Part shown: positions 7,658-39,220 of the stretch, one piece after another
Layout of the letters: every line of letters begins with the position of its first letter
Numbering within the stretch: the stretch's first letter is position 1
Assembly (NCBI GenBank): GCA_963826355.1
Contig: CAWGWX010000034.1
Span: forward strand, 85,023 to 149,022
Direction of reading: 5' to 3'
DNA length: 64,000 nucleotides
Origin: Nitrospirota bacterium
Lineage (GTDB): Bacteria; Nitrospirota; Thermodesulfovibrionia; Thermodesulfovibrionales; SM23-35
Position numbers and translations under genes: made by a program
The notes under the pieces: generated by a model
The model's input: only the letters and a program-made list of their open reading frames with translations
Told to the model about the DNA's origin: nothing
Database searches by the model: none

Positions 7658-9388
7658 ATGAGTGGAAAGTTTACCAACTTTTTTAAAGATCTCTTTCATC
7701 CACACGACTATTTAAGAATCCTGGGCAGGGACCGTTACAAAAGTTTAAAGGTAAGAATAGTTTTGCTTGACGCTGTGCTTTCTTTTATCCCACTTCTTAT
7801 TATGGTAACGATAAGCTACTTTTGGATTCAACATCTTCTAAAAGAAGATTTTCGCAATCAAGTTAAGTGGCAGCTCGAAAATACAAGACAATCTATCGAA
7901 TTTTTTATAGAAGAGAAAGTTTCTGCCCTTAGGTTTCTTGCCTCTTCTTATACCCTTGAGCAATTAACGGACCAAAAAACACTAACTGACATCTTTACTA
8001 AATTCGAAAGAGAATTTCCAGGGCTCGTTGACCTCGGAGTGCTTGACTCAAATGGTATACAACAAGCATATGCAGGTTCCTATTCCCTAAAAGGGAAGGA
8101 CTATTCAAATCAGGAATGGTTTAATGAGGTTGCCACCAGCAACGTGTATGTTAGCGATGTTTTCATGGGTTATCGAAGATTACCACATTTTGCAATTACT
8201 GTTAAAAAGGGACGATTAGAGAAGGGGACTTTCTGTATTCTCAGGGCCACAATTGATATGAAGACACTAAAAAGATTTACCTCTGGTATCGATCTGAGGG
8301 TGAGTGATGATGCTTTCATTATTAACAATGATGGTATCCTGCAAACACCTTCTCGATTTTATGGGAATGTGCTGGGAAAATCCAAACTGCCTCTTCCTAT
8401 TACCCAACAAGGTGGCTCGGTGCTGGATATAAAACAGTTCGGGGATGGTCCTGCCATAGTCGGATATGAGCCTATTAAGAATTCACCATGGATTTTGGTT
8501 GCGATTATAAAATCAACTACCTATTCAAAGATCCCTCAAATCTTCAGAAATGAACTGCTATTGATTGCTGTGGTGAGTATGTTTATTGGTATTGCGGTAA
8601 CCTTTCTCATGGCCAAAACTGTTGTAAATCGGATTAAAAAGGCAGACCTGGACGTGGAAGATGCGATAGCGCAGACCGAACAGGGCAGCAAGCTGGCATC
8701 TATTGGGCGACTTGCTGCAGGTGTTGCACATGAGATCAATAATCCCCTTGCCATAATCAATGAAAAGGCTGGCTTGGCGAGAGACCTTATTGAGATGTCT
8801 GGTGATGGAAAGGACAAGGACAAAGAAAAGCTTTTGACCTTGGTGAACGGAATAGTTGACAGCGTGAACCGTTGCCGCACAATTACACACCGCCTTTTAG
8901 GATTTGCCCGCCGAATGGAAATTACCTATGATGACATAGATCTGAATGATGTTGTGAAAGAGGTCATAGGATTCCTCGAAAAGGAGATTTTATACAGGAG
9001 CATTCGTTTAGAACTGAATCTCCAGGAAGACCTTCCTAAAATTAAGAGTGACAAAGGACAGCTCCAGCAGGTATTATTAAATATTATTAATAACGCCATG
9101 GACGCAGTTATAGAAAAGGGCCTCATTGAAGTCTCAACTAAAGTCAAAAATAAGAATGCAGTGCTGGTTTCGATCAGGGACACAGGGAGCGGAATCCCTA
9201 AAGATCAACTCAAATACATCTTTGAACCTTTCTATACCACAAAAGAAAAAGGGAAAGGGACAGGCTTGGGACTTTTCATATCAGGTGGAATTATGAAAAG
9301 ATTAGGGGGCAGACTCCTTGCTGAAAGCGAAGTCAACAAGGGAACGACTTTCATTCTCGAGGTGCCTATAAATGCGAAAGCAGGTTAA
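7658..9388 (+). CDS. Cache-domain sensor histidine kinase
   Basis: Two TMs with periplasmic Cache-like region; AHEINNPL, QQVLLNIINNA, DTGSGI, FEPFYTTK, GTGLGL. Confidence 0.93.
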   Translation: MSGKFTNFFKDLFHPHDYLRILGRDRYKSLKVRIVLLDAVLSFIPLLIMVTISYFWIQHLLKEDFRNQVKWQLENTRQSIEFFIEEKVSALRFLASSYTLEQLTDQKTLTDIFTKFEREFPGLVDLGVLDSNGIQQAYAGSYSLKGKDYSNQEWFNEVATSNVYVSDVFMGYRRLPHFAITVKKGRLEKGTFCILRATIDMKTLKRFTSGIDLRVSDDAFIINNDGILQTPSRFYGNVLGKSKLPLPITQQGGSVLDIKQFGDGPAIVGYEPIKNSPWILVAIIKSTTYSKIPQIFRNELLLIAVVSMFIGIAVTFLMAKTVVNRIKKADLDVEDAIAQTEQGSKLASIGRLAAGVAHEINNPLAIINEKAGLARDLIEMSGDGKDKDKEKLLTLVNGIVDSVNRCRTITHRLLGFARRMEITYDDIDLNDVVKEVIGFLEKEILYRSIRLELNLQEDLPKIKSDKGQLQQVLLNIINNAMDAVIEKGLIEVSTKVKNKNAVLVSIRDTGSGIPKDQLKYIFEPFYTTKEKGKGTGLGLFISGGIMKRLGGRLLAESEVNKGTTFILEVPINAKAG

Positions 9389-9776
9389 AGGGGACGTCAC
9401 GATACCCACTAAAGTGTTTTTAGTTGATGATGAGGTAGAATTCGCCTCAACACTATCAGAGAGATTGCGGTTACGTAAGTATGATGCAAGGCCTATATAC
9501 AATGCTGAAGATGCCTTGCACATCATTCGCAGTGATCCACCTGATGTGATACTGCTTGACCTGAAAATGCCAGGCACTAGAGGCATCGATATGCTGAGAA
9601 CTATTAAGGAGATTAATCCCACTATTGAAGTCATTATAATAACAGGTAAGTTAGATAGAGAGAGCGAGATTGAAGGAATGGAGAGCGGAGCCTTTGCTTA
9701 TATTGTAAAACCCATAGATATTGATGAACTAATATTACAGATTGACAAGGCTAAGATGAAACGAAACAAAGGCTGA
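9372..9776 (+). CDS. Single-domain response regulator
   Basis: VDDE, LLDLKMPG, ITG, KP; true start uncertain. Confidence 0.88.
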   Translation: MRKQVKGDVTIPTKVFLVDDEVEFASTLSERLRLRKYDARPIYNAEDALHIIRSDPPDVILLDLKMPGTRGIDMLRTIKEINPTIEVIIITGKLDRESEIEGMESGAFAYIVKPIDIDELILQIDKAKMKRNKG

Positions 9777-9796
9777 GCAATGAATAGAGGCAGCAT

Positions 9797-10492
9797 ATGA
9801 AGCACGACGAAAAAGAGAATGATCTAATGGCCTTGCAGCTAAGTTACATCGGCAAGATTTTATCAAGATTTACACATGAGATTAATAATCACCTTGCCTT
9901 TATAAAAGAATCAGCAGGATTAATAGGTGACCTTATAGAGTCAAAAAAATCATTGGATAAACAGGATTTACAACAGAGTTTGGATATTCTCCACTCCATT
10001 AGCGACCAAATTAGGGAAACTTCAGTACTGTCTAATTGTCTCAATCGCTTTGCTCACAGGATGGACAAGGCCCTTTCCACCTTCGATGTCAATAAAAGTC
10101 TGGAAGAACTACTTGTCCTGTTAACGAAATTTGCAAACCAGAAAAGAATCAGTCTTGAAAAAGATTTTTATAAGGACCTTCCCGCAATCCATAGTGACCC
10201 AGCAAAGCTTCAGTTTCTCATTTTTTGCTTAATTGAGGAAAAATTAAGGAAACTTGAAAAAAACAGCTGTATTACTGTTAAAACAGTATCTTCAAATGGA
10301 TTTATTACAATTGAGGTGATCTCTAAAGGAAACATTATAGAAGCTGTAGAGGAAGGCATATATTCAAAAGAAATCCATCACCACGTTATAAAGCAGTTAG
10401 GCGGCAGAATGGCTCAAATAGATGAAGATATAGCAATCACACTACCTCTATCTATTTCTTCTGCTCCTGACCAAACTTATTTCAAAATCTGA
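9797..10492 (+). CDS. Histidine-kinase-like protein with intact H-box and degenerate ATPase domain
   Basis: FTHEINNHL; N-box region reads LQFLIFCLIEE; no DxGxG or GxGLG. Confidence 0.7.
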   Translation: MKHDEKENDLMALQLSYIGKILSRFTHEINNHLAFIKESAGLIGDLIESKKSLDKQDLQQSLDILHSISDQIRETSVLSNCLNRFAHRMDKALSTFDVNKSLEELLVLLTKFANQKRISLEKDFYKDLPAIHSDPAKLQFLIFCLIEEKLRKLEKNSCITVKTVSSNGFITIEVISKGNIIEAVEEGIYSKEIHHHVIKQLGGRMAQIDEDIAITLPLSISSAPDQTYFKI

Positions 10493-37914: not shown

Positions 37915-37916
37915 TT

Positions 37917-38780
37917 ATGTATAACAATATCGTAATAGGGTTCGATGATTCTGAGTTCAGTAAGGCAGCCCTTTTAGAATCTGCACATTGGATCAAGAGG
38001 CATGGTGGTAAGGCTGTTCTTGTCCATTCTGTTTTTTTTGATGAAGAGGAGTTTGTTATTGCACCGAACCAGAGGGAGAGGCGCTTTGAGCTGGGTAAAA
38101 CAATGTGTTACCGGACACAGGAAACGTTTTCATCTGATTTCGGGTTAGACGGAGATCTGGAAGCCATGGTCTGTGAAGGGGAACCCCACGAGGTGATCGT
38201 TAATGTTGCAAGCGAAAGGAAAGCGGACCTTATTGCTATAGGGACCCATGGAAGAAAGGGATTAAAAAAGTTATTTATGGGTAGTGTGACATCGAGGGTT
38301 ATTGCAAGTTCACCATGTGATGTGATGTTAGTAAAAAAGCCATGCGAACAGTGCCTCGGTGAATATCAATCCATTCTGCTTTCCTTTGACGGCTCGGAAC
38401 TGAGTAAAAAAGCATTAAAAAGGGCATGTGAATTATCAAAGATAGACGGTTCGGAGATAACAGCCCTCTATGTAATTCCACATTATGAAGAAATGATAGA
38501 ATTTTTTGCAACGAGTGGGATAAAGGAATCTCTTCTGCACGATGCACAGAGGATTGTGCAAAATGCAAAGGAAATAGCTTCAAGTCAGGGGGTGGCAATA
38601 AAAACAGAAGTAGCTGAAGGACATGCAGCAGAAAAAATCGTGGAGACTGCCGACAGGCTCAAAAGTGATCTGATCATTAGAGGGCCTCACGGATGGTCCG
38701 GAGTTAACAAGGCAATAATAGGAAGCATCATAGAAAATGTGATCGTAAATGCTTCCTGTCCTGTATTGGTAGTCAAATGA
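37917..38780 (+). CDS. Tandem-domain universal stress protein
   Basis: GTHGRKGLKKLFMGSVT; SFDGS; CEQC linker. Confidence 0.92.
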   Translation: MYNNIVIGFDDSEFSKAALLESAHWIKRHGGKAVLVHSVFFDEEEFVIAPNQRERRFELGKTMCYRTQETFSSDFGLDGDLEAMVCEGEPHEVIVNVASERKADLIAIGTHGRKGLKKLFMGSVTSRVIASSPCDVMLVKKPCEQCLGEYQSILLSFDGSELSKKALKRACELSKIDGSEITALYVIPHYEEMIEFFATSGIKESLLHDAQRIVQNAKEIASSQGVAIKTEVAEGHAAEKIVETADRLKSDLIIRGPHGWSGVNKAIIGSIIENVIVNASCPVLVVK

Positions 38781-39220
38781 ATAATAAAAAAGGAGGTAAT
38801 GTCATGAAGGATTATAGGAATGTTGTAATTGCTGTAAATGGTTCGAAAGATGTGTTGATTGAAGGATTAAGACTTCTCCATGATGAGAAATGCCATGTCA
38901 CAGTGGTAAAAGTGATCCCATCTTATGAAGGTGACCTTAGCATGGTTGGCGTTAAGGATATTGATGGTTTGCTTAACAGCGGGGCAGAAAAAGAAATCTC
39001 TGAAATAAAGGAGATTGCGAAAACAGAGGGTGCAAAGGTCAAAATCAGGGTGGAAGAAGGCGAGATTCACGAGAAGATTGTGGAGACAGCAGAAGATGAA
39101 AAAGCTGACCTTATCATAATGGGAGCAGATAAGAAGAACTTTATTGATAAACTATTTGCTTGGAATACCGTTGATAAAGTCACCAATCAAGCATCCTGTC
39201 CCGTGCTTTTAGTCAAGTAA
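38777..39220 (+). CDS. Universal stress protein
   Basis: VVIAVNGS..ADLIIMG..CPVLLVK; likely start 38804. Confidence 0.9.
   Translation: MNNKKGGNVMKDYRNVVIAVNGSKDVLIEGLRLLHDEKCHVTVVKVIPSYEGDLSMVGVKDIDGLLNSGAEKEISEIKEIAKTEGAKVKIRVEEGEIHEKIVETAEDEKADLIIMGADKKNFIDKLFAWNTVDKVTNQASCPVLLVK

Follow-up and report, generated by a model that had tools for sequence, protein, structure and literature searches.

A conserved sigma-54 regulon of TauE permeases and universal stress proteins with a receiver-bearing Lon protease and a small motif peptide, in a rearranged copy from a Nitrospirota genome

The stretch of DNA considered here (the window) is 64 kb of the genome of a Nitrospirota bacterium (GenBank assembly GCA_963826355.1, contig CAWGWX010000034.1, positions 85,023 to 149,022 of the forward strand), and the interval under study, 7658-39220, is rich in genes for signalling proteins, membrane permeases and universal stress proteins (USPs), together with a Lon protease that carries a receiver domain (REC-Lon). 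Gene calls were taken from a listing of open reading frames (ORFs) and from Pfam and NCBIfam scans, and every gene class named in a preliminary description of this DNA was found again: one REC-Lon, seven stand-alone receivers, five kinases with HisKA and HATPase_c domains, two histidine kinase-like (HK-like) proteins, two sigma-54 activators, four TauE proteins, three tandem USPs and one single USP. That inventory is borne out, with the qualification that the gene counts are inflated because the window contains segmental duplications, a mosaic region and an insertion sequence (IS) remnant.

The peptide/REC-Lon operon

The operon that contains REC-Lon, and the kinase and activator genes that diverge from it, are laid out as follows.

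17275-18639, minus strand: sigma-54 activator, REC-AAA-HTH_8 (Pfam)
18636-20138, minus strand: HAMP histidine kinase (Pfam)
20296-20307, plus strand: palindrome TTGCA-N3-TGCA (pattern scan)
20386-20401, plus strand: sigma-54 -24/-12 element TGGCAC-N5-ATGC (pattern scan)
20444-20611, plus strand: motif peptide gene 1, 55 amino acids (six-frame motif scan)
20692-20871, plus strand: motif peptide gene 2, 59 amino acids (six-frame motif scan)
20954-23131, plus strand: REC-Lon (Pfam: Response_reg 121-230, AAA 248-388, Lon_lid, Lon_C 468-670)
23128-23610, plus strand: motif-USP-like protein, 160 amino acids (N-terminal motif hairpin and USP-fold domain)
23941-24496, plus strand: IS1595-family transposase gene in two fragments (Pfam DDE_Tnp_IS1595)
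about 24886-25140, plus strand: small membrane protein gene, frameshifted (about 85 amino acids in relatives)
25144-26238, plus strand: TauE permease, distal gene of the operon (Pfam)
26216-27079, plus strand: tandem USP, distal gene of the operon (Pfam)

REC-Lon scores 724.8 bits against TIGR00763 (LonA, endopeptidase La; cut-off 608), and alignment with the 853-residue canonical LonA of a relative pairs its residues 21-122 with LonA 266-367 and its residues 244-693 with LonA 363-806, which puts the receiver exactly at the junction of the final N-terminal helical segment with the first AAA+ strand. The protein begins at the equivalent of residue ~266, the first ~265 LonA residues being missing, and has no Pfam match to LON_substr_bdg; in LonA the N-terminal domain serves in the recognition of unfolded proteins and substrates. 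The receiver (Response_reg, E 3.7e-30) is modelled as a (beta-alpha)5 fold with a predicted local distance difference test score (pLDDT) of ~80-90, and its alpha5 (223-240) runs into AAA+ strand 247-251. Across 19 REC-Lon sequences no variation is seen in the receiver active site (acidic pair D125 and D126, phospho-acceptor D169, T197 and K219), in the Walker A and B elements (G252-S260; D319, E320) or in the catalytic Ser-Lys dyad S577 and K620. That REC-Lon is an extra LonA paralog lacking the N-domain, with a receiver inserted directly before the AAA+ module, is well supported by these alignments, and this anatomy is reported as new here. The REC-Lon of the window and its closest relatives also carry ~55 extra C-terminal residues (725 amino acids, compared with ~666-670 in most of the family); this extension (672-725; DNA 22970-23131, and again at 32196-32357) is modelled as disordered and contains a C-x3-C pair.

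At least 120 REC-Lon clusters were found, with identities of 74-96%, all combining Response_reg with Lon and the named ones belonging to Nitrospirota/Thermodesulfovibrionales; leads from the ESM Atlas are receiver-Lon clusters labelled mainly Thermodesulfobacteriota. Full-length REC-Lon is present in 14 of 41 relatives, in 34 of 151 genomes sampled by order and in 31 of 201 sampled by phylum. A canonical LonA of ~800 amino acids is also present in 31 of the 34 REC-Lon genomes; none was found in the window's own assembly, which is 74% complete. (L-numbers below denote fetched loci and G-numbers genomes.) One Deltaproteobacteria-labelled genome (G325, the source of L091) has on its contig 1 one REC-Lon and five further LonA-like matches at E<=1e-146, an exceptionally large set of Lon paralogs.

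The receiver of REC-Lon has a close relative next door. It is 52-58% identical to the receiver of the neighbouring activator, as against 27-30% to the stand-alone receivers, and shares with activator receivers an alpha1 stretch NLEH and a beta3-alpha3 loop MEKVxG; the receivers of the Lon proteins group together in one clade. In receivers it is to a large extent alpha1 that determines the choice of kinase partner, and from this kinship we infer that the same kinase serves both proteins. REC-Lon further resembles activators of the NtrC1/DctD type in having its receiver immediately N-terminal to the AAA+ module, and differs from them in that its output is proteolysis, that a helical LonA segment precedes the receiver, and that the linker between receiver and AAA+ module is ~6-13 residues rather than the ~25 of the neighbouring activator (model and Pfam coordinates). 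Receivers of that type control assembly of the adjacent AAA+ ring. The placement of the receiver, with its likeness to the activator receiver, makes phosphorylation-controlled ring assembly or ATPase activity a natural mechanism, and a phospho-gated Lon is a reasonable reading of these features.

Each of the two -24/-12 elements in the interval closely precedes the gene that comes first beside an activator, as had been proposed. A stricter sigma-54 pattern gives one match in 64 kb with 0.38 expected, which is weak taken alone; of 12 orthologous loci, however, 11 have a -24/-12-like element 43-60 nucleotides ahead of the start of the peptide, and the palindrome upstream of the peptide can be seen by eye in most of these 12. 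It is well supported that a predicted sigma-54 promoter heads the peptide/REC-Lon operon, with the HAMP kinase and activator genes divergent from it. This kinase and its copy at 30309-31808 have in their ATPase domains an insertion of ~28 residues that is absent from the other kinases; its three cysteines (C-x8-C-x3-C) could form a metal or redox site.

Conservation was followed across about 100 loci overall. In the REC-Lon loci of 13 relatives the peptide, the kinase/activator pair, the motif-USP-like protein, TauE and USP occur together in 12, so that the association which the preliminary description had expected to find outside this genome does recur. The common order around REC-Lon has the activator and HAMP kinase on one strand and, divergent from them, the 59-residue peptide, REC-Lon, the motif-USP-like protein, TauE and a tandem USP; in almost every fetched locus the kinase/activator pair and the peptide gene diverge. 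Twelve loci fetched from genomes without REC-Lon again have the activator/kinase pair and the peptide, with no Lon between peptide and USP-like gene, and in nine of them the order of peptide, USP-like protein, TauE and tandem USP is otherwise unchanged (gene order differs in L042 and L043, where a second type of kinase/activator pair is present, and in L038 a CitMHS permease replaces TauE and USP). The recurring operon is therefore motif peptide, optional REC-Lon, motif-USP-like protein, small membrane protein, TauE and tandem USP, and close to it there are often a second sigma-54 TauE/USP module and a relay module (both described below), the whole being a conserved supercluster. A signature for the small membrane protein gave 18 matches at 15 distinct loci, 13 of the 18 lying between the USP-like gene and TauE.

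The peptide consists of the N-terminal helical-hairpin motif and a basic C-terminal tail, and its ratio of nonsynonymous to synonymous substitution rates (dN/dS), 0.07-0.27 where dS could be estimated, indicates a real gene under purifying selection. The hairpin is conserved everywhere. The tail, in REC-Lon loci, is basic and carries R-x-x-L-R-A followed by 0-6 residues (peptides end exactly at L-R-A in L030, L062, L077, L110 and L116); in loci without REC-Lon it is neutral or acidic and unconserved. We scored tails by net charge and by a hydrophobic-[R/S/K]-A element near the C-terminus, a definition set after viewing the data, so that the counts are descriptive. Where REC-Lon lies within 1 kb of the peptide gene, the element is present in 31 of 32 peptides and a net charge of at least +4 in 28 (median +6). 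Both features occur in 7 of 26 motif ORFs from loci without REC-Lon (median charge +1), a set defined by flanks of at least 3 kb that includes four ORFs other than simple peptides (a truncated USP-like protein in L095, a double-motif protein in L098 and fusions in L125 and L126).

Some tail-bearing peptides have no REC-Lon in their locus, and all six such genomes tested encode REC-Lon at another site, which in two cases lies immediately beyond the fetched stretch; five of the six have the full tail signature and the sixth (L104) an R-A end at charge +3. Conversely, REC-Lon was found in none of four tail-less genomes searched whole, and at E<=1e-150 in none of nine tail-less genomes among the Lon-less fetched loci. 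The tail is retained where REC-Lon is inverted, precedes the peptide or is encoded at a distant chromosomal site, which argues for a constraint at the protein level; nucleotide-level overlap or translational coupling was considered as the cause of the tail and rejected, since the tail survives separation from REC-Lon. As judged from these sequences the peptide tail tracks the presence of REC-Lon across phyla, a covariation that is new here.

A simpler account of REC-Lon would make it a general quality-control Lon, induced by stress and activated by phosphorylation, as suggested for DVU3303 of Desulfovibrio vulgaris, with no specific tie to the peptide or to transport. Its catalytic residues are intact, and the DVU3298-3305 genes of D. 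vulgaris, to which we return below, are induced at high pH, in heat shock and in stationary phase, according to Rajeev 2011 (PMC3333781). We nonetheless think this account quite unlikely: the peptide tail tracks REC-Lon, canonical LonA is retained in nearly all REC-Lon genomes, as counted above, and the loss of the N-domain, given the role of that domain, argues against broad recognition of unfolded proteins.

The shared hairpin motif and the permease/USP modules

The motif of the peptide is not confined to it. A six-frame scan finds seven copies in the window, and a profile run over the whole 1.48-Mb assembly gives the same number of matches, all inside the interval, in agreement with the earlier statement that a single motif links peptides, receivers and USP-like proteins. 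Its carriers are the two tandem small ORFs, the N-terminus of the 160-residue protein and the truncated copy of that gene, the C-termini of two receivers and one frameshifted USP-like gene. The motif is about 30 residues long, and in the AlphaFold2 model of the 160-residue protein it forms a hairpin of two helices (8-26 and 30-38), with pLDDT ~63 over residues 8-38 as against ~90 for the USP-fold core and 79 overall. Residues 10-32 match TPR_4 with E 0.02 (15.9 bits, below the cut-off of 27).

The remainder of the 160-residue protein is recognizable by structure. It has no Pfam or NCBIfam match at E<=0.01 and only an unrelated weak one at E<=1, and the best Foldseek matches of its model are USPs (3tnj, E 2.3e-6, TM-score 0.47/0.57; TeaD, 3hgm). 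A glycine-rich nucleotide-binding motif is typical of universal stress proteins, and from our reading of the alignment the protein appears to lack it. Leads from the ESM Atlas place USP-like clusters mainly in Nitrospirota. As with TeaD of the TeaABC TRAP transporter, a USP-fold protein is encoded together with a secondary transporter; unlike TeaD, the protein has no Pfam Usp match and has an extra N-terminal hairpin. TeaD is thought to regulate the TeaABC transporter.

Two further groups of permease and USP genes flank the central operon, here called modules 1 and 3, the latter preceded by the second kinase/activator pair.

11955-12935, plus strand: TauE, module 1 (Pfam)
12947-13369, plus strand: 140-residue membrane protein, module 1
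13454-13828, plus strand: receiver, module 1 (Pfam)
13944-14402, plus strand: receiver with C-terminal motif (motif 14307-14402), module 1 (Pfam, motif scan)
14716-15693, plus strand: second TauE, module 1 (Pfam)
15789-16628, plus strand: tandem USP, module 1 (Pfam)
32639-34219, plus strand: HAMP kinase of the second pair (Pfam)
34206-35549, plus strand: sigma-54 activator of the second pair (Pfam)
35621-35635, plus strand: second sigma-54 -24/-12 element TGGCAT-N5-TTGC (script scan)
35652-36145, plus strand: USP-like protein with internal motif, module 3, frameshifted near 35853
36203-37120, plus strand: TauE, module 3 (Pfam)
37120-37914, plus strand: Alph_Pro_TM membrane protein, module 3 (Pfam)
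37917-38780, plus strand: tandem USP, module 3 (Pfam)
38777-39220, plus strand: single USP, module 3 (Pfam)

The four TauE proteins match TauE/SafE (TSUP, PF01925) with 109-172 bits (Pfam cut-off 32.6), and TSUP function is not predictable from sequence, as stated in Marietou 2018 (PMC5840216). With NCBIfam the module 3 TauE also shows weak similarity, at E 8e-11 and well short of the cut-off, to the TauE-like C-terminus of the magnetosome protein MamO, in which a TauE domain is combined with a protease-like one. The second kinase/activator pair is kept upstream of module 3 in L034, L037, L040, L041, L043 and others, and in six of the 12 Lon-less loci a second pair stands beside a module of internal-motif USP-like protein, TauE, Alph_Pro_TM protein, tandem USP and USP. 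The order TauE, 140-residue protein and tandem USP is found beside an activator in many loci. The 140-residue membrane protein is kept with TauE across phyla; its match to DUF1634 is non-significant (E 0.25).

Beyond the relatives, a scan for the motif in one genome per species gave at least 600 pattern matches, of which at least 229 were confirmed; the best 80 of these, representing 79 loci, were kept. Among these best matches 58 loci are labelled as Nitrospirota-type and 21 as other, mostly Desulfobacterota-type with a few Gammaproteobacteria-type; the labels outside Nitrospirota include Desulfobacterota, Chromatiales, Thiotrichaceae and Burkholderiales, and odd ones may be binning errors. 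The gene set thus recurs in several phyla. Within 10 kb of the motif, on contigs many of which are short, the 79 loci contain a motif-USP-like gene in 64, TauE in 58, USP in 51, an activator in 52, a kinase in 52 and REC-Lon in 37. In several Desulfobacterota-labelled loci the permease beside the peptide/USP-like pair is CitMHS instead of TauE, and CitMHS and CBS genes adjoin the TauE364/USP genes in L042 and the activator in L045.

Fusions show how the motif travels. It is joined to the N-terminus of the small membrane protein in L113 (10001-10435) and L125 (9986-10333), and because this protein is normally encoded upstream of TauE these fusions hint that the hairpin acts at the permease; a USP-like protein in L108 has two copies. 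In L111 (12649-15315) the motif is inserted inside the nucleotide-binding domain of an 888-residue PPDK_N/PEP-utilizers enzyme, as also in a partial ORF of L119 (2713-3972), and the gene for this enzyme adjoins TauE, Alph_Pro_TM and a receiver gene. The motif can with good support be called a portable helical hairpin; all its carriers are in TauE/USP or CitMHS neighbourhoods, whether or not these contain Lon. Candidate receptors for it are other hairpins, the tandem USP, and the permease with its small membrane partner.

The preliminary description had proposed that the motif docks proteins onto the receiver-gated Lon, the phosphorelay gating degradation of motif proteins and thereby TauE. Motif, REC-Lon, TauE and USP do co-occur; REC-Lon stands directly beside the relay module with its motif-bearing receiver (described below) in L031/L065 and L100; and the mutant phenotypes of D. 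vulgaris (PMC10102598) point in the direction that a transporter-lowering Lon arm would give. The distribution of the motif speaks otherwise. In the order-level sample its profile matches 97 of 151 genomes, comprising 31 of 34 with REC-Lon and also 66 of 117 without, and the whole operon occurs without Lon in the 12 loci noted above; on this distribution we reject the motif as a Lon docking element. It is the tail of the peptide, not the motif, that tracks REC-Lon, and nothing ties Lon to the membrane-embedded TauE, so that we regard the proposal as a whole as improbable.

A different division of labour would make the peptide a bivalent adaptor whose hairpin pairs with that of the motif-USP-like protein (or another motif protein) and whose tail docks onto REC-Lon, the partner being degraded or Lon being activated. 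In most loci the genes for the peptide and the motif-USP-like protein are neighbours, the modelled hairpin falls below the core in confidence as expected of a part that packs elsewhere, REC-Lon is without the usual substrate-recognition domain, and adaptors for Lon are known, SmiA being one (PMC9204741). The peptides that end at L-R-A resemble C-terminal degrons more than docking peptides, and we consider an adaptor role unlikely.

The relay module, duplications and damage

The left part of the interval is a relay module, preceded by two genes of flanking context; a PilZ gene separates module 1 from the activator. The region between the central operon and the second pair is a mosaic.

5527-6018, plus strand: CBS-pair protein (Pfam CBS; flanking context)
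6054-7421, plus strand: CitMHS-family anion/cation permease (Pfam CitMHS; flanking context)
7658-9388, plus strand: dCache kinase, relay module (Pfam HisKA and HATPase_c)
9372-9776, plus strand: receiver, relay module (Pfam)
9797-10492, plus strand: HK-like protein, relay module (no Pfam HATPase_c match)
10671-11111 and 11187-11627, plus strand: two tandem receivers, relay module (Pfam)
16969-17265, plus strand: small PilZ-domain protein (Pfam PilZ, E 7.9e-6)
27159-27539, plus strand: truncated kinase N-terminus, mosaic
27471-27929, minus strand: receiver with C-terminal motif, mosaic (Pfam, motif scan)
28156-28728, minus strand: C-terminally shortened HK-like gene, mosaic (no Pfam HATPase_c match)
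28739-29122, minus strand: receiver, mosaic (Pfam)
29119-30312, minus strand: chimeric REC-kinase, mosaic (Pfam)
30309-31808, minus strand: HAMP kinase copy, mosaic (Pfam)
31929-32357, plus strand: Lon C-terminal fragment, mosaic (self-comparison)
32354-32545, plus strand: truncated motif-USP-like gene, mosaic (motif scan)

Among the fetched loci the PilZ gene is kept at the corresponding place only in L021/L049 and L025. A ribonucleotide reductase gene with barrel and TSCPD domains (39441-41810) directly follows the cluster.

The relay module gene set, including a motif-bearing receiver, recurs in L030, L070, L100 and L123. Alignment with a homolog from another family shows that the HK-like proteins keep the H-box histidine and have lost the ATP-site boxes (the N-box asparagine is replaced, G1 is degenerate, and F and G2 are deleted), as the claim of dead ATPase domains had anticipated; there is no N-terminal extension. 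In layout the HK-like protein fits the description of a ChpT/Spo0B-type protein, with a DHp-like helix that carries a phosphorylatable histidine, a domain resembling the catalytic ATP-binding domain without its ATP site, and no sensor domain. Among solved structures it comes nearest to the kinase cores of ZraS (E 1.3e-4) and RetS (E 5e-3), and neither ChpT nor Spo0B is among its 14 solved-structure matches at E<=1. A role as a RetS-like, kinase-binding inhibitor is as plausible as one as a phosphotransferase. The comparison that had been drawn with CckA-ChpT-CpdR-ClpXP of Caulobacter, in which the activity of a AAA+ protease depends on the phosphorylation state of a receiver, holds for the combination of an ATP-site-less HK-like relay protein, single-domain receivers and a AAA+ protease; it differs in that the receiver here lies within the protease polypeptide, that the protease is Lon and not ClpXP, and that the HK-like protein has no detectable sequence similarity to ChpT.

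Much of the density of the interval has arisen by duplication, in part recently, as self-comparison shows. The seven stand-alone receivers fall into three families of two to three copies each. Within module 1 both TauE (12013-13015 and 14774-15775, 85% identity by self-blastn, as for the values that follow) and the receiver (13427-13799 and 13921-14289, 92%) are duplicated. The segment 27016-32501 is a mosaic of duplicated pieces: the HAMP kinase with the activator receiver (18236-20291 and 29909-31961, 82%), the dCache kinase core with receiver and HK-like gene in inverted orientation (8703-10429 and 29813-28107, 67%), the Lon C-terminus with the start of the 160-residue gene (22734-23275 and 31960-32501, 95%), and the N-terminus of the second kinase (27016-27462 and 32496-32942, 97.5%). 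Downstream of the HAMP kinase copy the rearrangement has joined an activator-type receiver to a dCache-type kinase core, giving the chimeric REC-kinase. The sister genome (L022/L050) has this chimera too, at 88% identity; with copies of the pieces 67-97% identical, the mosaic is unlikely to be an assembly artefact. Because the chimeric gene is intact in both genomes, the rewired pathway may be in use.

Other changes have damaged the cluster. The IS1595 fragments separate the 160-residue USP-like gene from TauE and so interrupt the peptide/REC-Lon operon; contigs from related strains join 23613 to 24846/24858 without the IS fragments in three of four metagenome runs. The small membrane protein gene is frameshifted, its open frame being without a start, and in the module 3 USP-like gene tblastn places residues 3-63 of an intact homolog in frame 3 and residues 65-164 in frame 2. 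The tandem duplication of the peptide is strain-specific, one related-strain contig having a single gene and skipping 20509-20766.

Given this history one might ask whether there is any system here, or simply a signalling-rich neighbourhood built by local duplication whose members act independently, as the mosaic, IS fragments and frameshifts might suggest. Gene order is kept across families and phyla, the motif has been independently fused to five kinds of protein in these neighbourhoods, and the D. vulgaris trio discussed next shows cofitness above 0.9 (PMC10102598); independence of the members is accordingly very improbable.

Known relatives and a proposed role

The closest described system is that of D. 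vulgaris. In Rajeev 2011 (PMC3333781), DVU3303 (receiver and Lon), DVU3304 (histidine kinase) and DVU3305 (sigma-54 activator) are called a "three-component system", the targets of DVU3305 include its own operon and DVU3302-3298, encoding membrane, hypothetical and UspA-type proteins, DVU3303 is proposed to need phosphorylation for protease activity, and orthologs with a Lon-receiver gene and a conserved binding site are noted in Thermodesulfovibrio yellowstonii and others. Kazakov 2015 (PMC4641369) lists the regulon under general stress response and transmembrane transport. According to Trotter 2023 (PMC10102598), DVU3303-3305 are closely cofit, as already cited, and their loss is beneficial in chlorate, whereas loss of the putative anion transporter DVU3299 is harmful in chlorate, which fits a signalling/Lon arm that opposes transporter function. 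The notion of a system with no prior description is therefore superseded.

The DVU3303-3305 type of arrangement, with a receiver-Lon beside a kinase and a sigma-54 activator and next to a membrane/USP operon that includes a putative anion transporter, is present in the window, in its relatives and in other phyla. It differs here in that Lon belongs to the divergent target operon, whereas in D. vulgaris it belongs, by gene numbering, to the kinase/activator operon; and the published accounts of that system, in their accessible parts, contain no motif peptide, shared motif, second sigma-54 TauE module or relay module. The interval is a rearranged, duplicated and partly damaged copy of a sigma-54 regulon for TauE/TSUP permeases and USPs that is widespread among sulfate-reducing bacteria but little studied, of the same kind as DVU3298-3305. 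The kind of system is known and its coherence is genetically supported; the new lead is the pairing of REC-Lon with the peptide tail, which predicts a dedicated client. Our search of the published literature, which covered articles and not their supplements, found no description of the insertion anatomy of REC-Lon, of the tail covariation, of the motif or of the peptide.

We propose the following scheme. One HAMP kinase would phosphorylate both the activator and REC-Lon, so that the protease is made and gated by the same signal, with phosphorylation controlling assembly of the REC-Lon ring or its ATPase activity. The peptide would be the dedicated client of REC-Lon, as a substrate or as an adaptor or cofactor, engaged through its basic R-x-x-L-R-A tail; by removing or using it, REC-Lon would tune a network of motif proteins that acts on the permease/USP module. 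The relay module, with its ATP-site-less HK-like protein, would feed the motif-bearing receiver into the same network. A small induced protein as a Lon client has a parallel in Caulobacter, where the two-component system FixLJ induces the small protein FixT, and Lon degrades FixT in feedback on that system (bioRxiv 10.1101/2024.02.05.579008); there the protease is the housekeeping LonA and the client a receiver-like regulator, whereas here it would be a dedicated receiver-bearing paralog and a hairpin-tail peptide.

Several observations weigh against this scheme. In L031/L065 and L100 it is the relay module, not the kinase/activator pair, that lies beside REC-Lon, and the phosphodonor may therefore differ. 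One genome that is 96% complete (G041) has a tail-like peptide and no REC-Lon that we could find, and the motif profile has no match in three REC-Lon genomes (G016, G090 and G110). The relatives compared are not independent, so that the counts of tails with and without REC-Lon imply more evolutionary events than there were. The case for orthology to DVU3303-3305 is built on the published statement about T. yellowstonii together with matching architecture. In the window itself the operon is interrupted by the IS remnant and two genes are frameshifted, and this copy may be partly non-functional. Taking all this together we give the full reading, a conserved regulon with a REC-Lon gated by one kinase and one signal and the peptide as its dedicated client or cofactor, an even chance of being right.

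A bolder extension, which we put forward tentatively and think has the weight of probability against it, is that the hairpin is a portable plug wiring unrelated proteins (peptide, USP-like proteins, receiver, small membrane protein and PEP-utilising kinase-like enzyme) into a membrane hub of TSUP or CitMHS permease and tandem USP, and that the R-x-x-L-R-A tail is a C-terminal degron which the free peptide gained in lineages with REC-Lon, so that the kinase-gated, N-domain-less Lon could erase the peptide; the two would then be a natural, dedicated pair of substrate and protease, acting as a phosphorylation-controlled timer on anion transport in sulfate reducers. That Lon controls turnover of the permease is speculative, the sign of the D. 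vulgaris phenotype being compatible with it.

What this analysis adds to the known system is a precise gene set, a defined motif family and a specific prediction, namely tail-dependent action of REC-Lon on the peptide. In the usual view Lon is always active and serves quality control, with few known specific substrates and hardly any adaptors. If the proposed scheme is true, this would be a case of signal-gated Lon proteolysis with a defined client, in which the substrate-recognition domain has been swapped for a phosphorylation switch and a 59-residue partner co-evolves with the protease. Since the regulon controls TSUP permeases and has a chlorate phenotype in D. vulgaris (PMC10102598), it could bear on oxyanion transport and stress handling in sulfate reducers.

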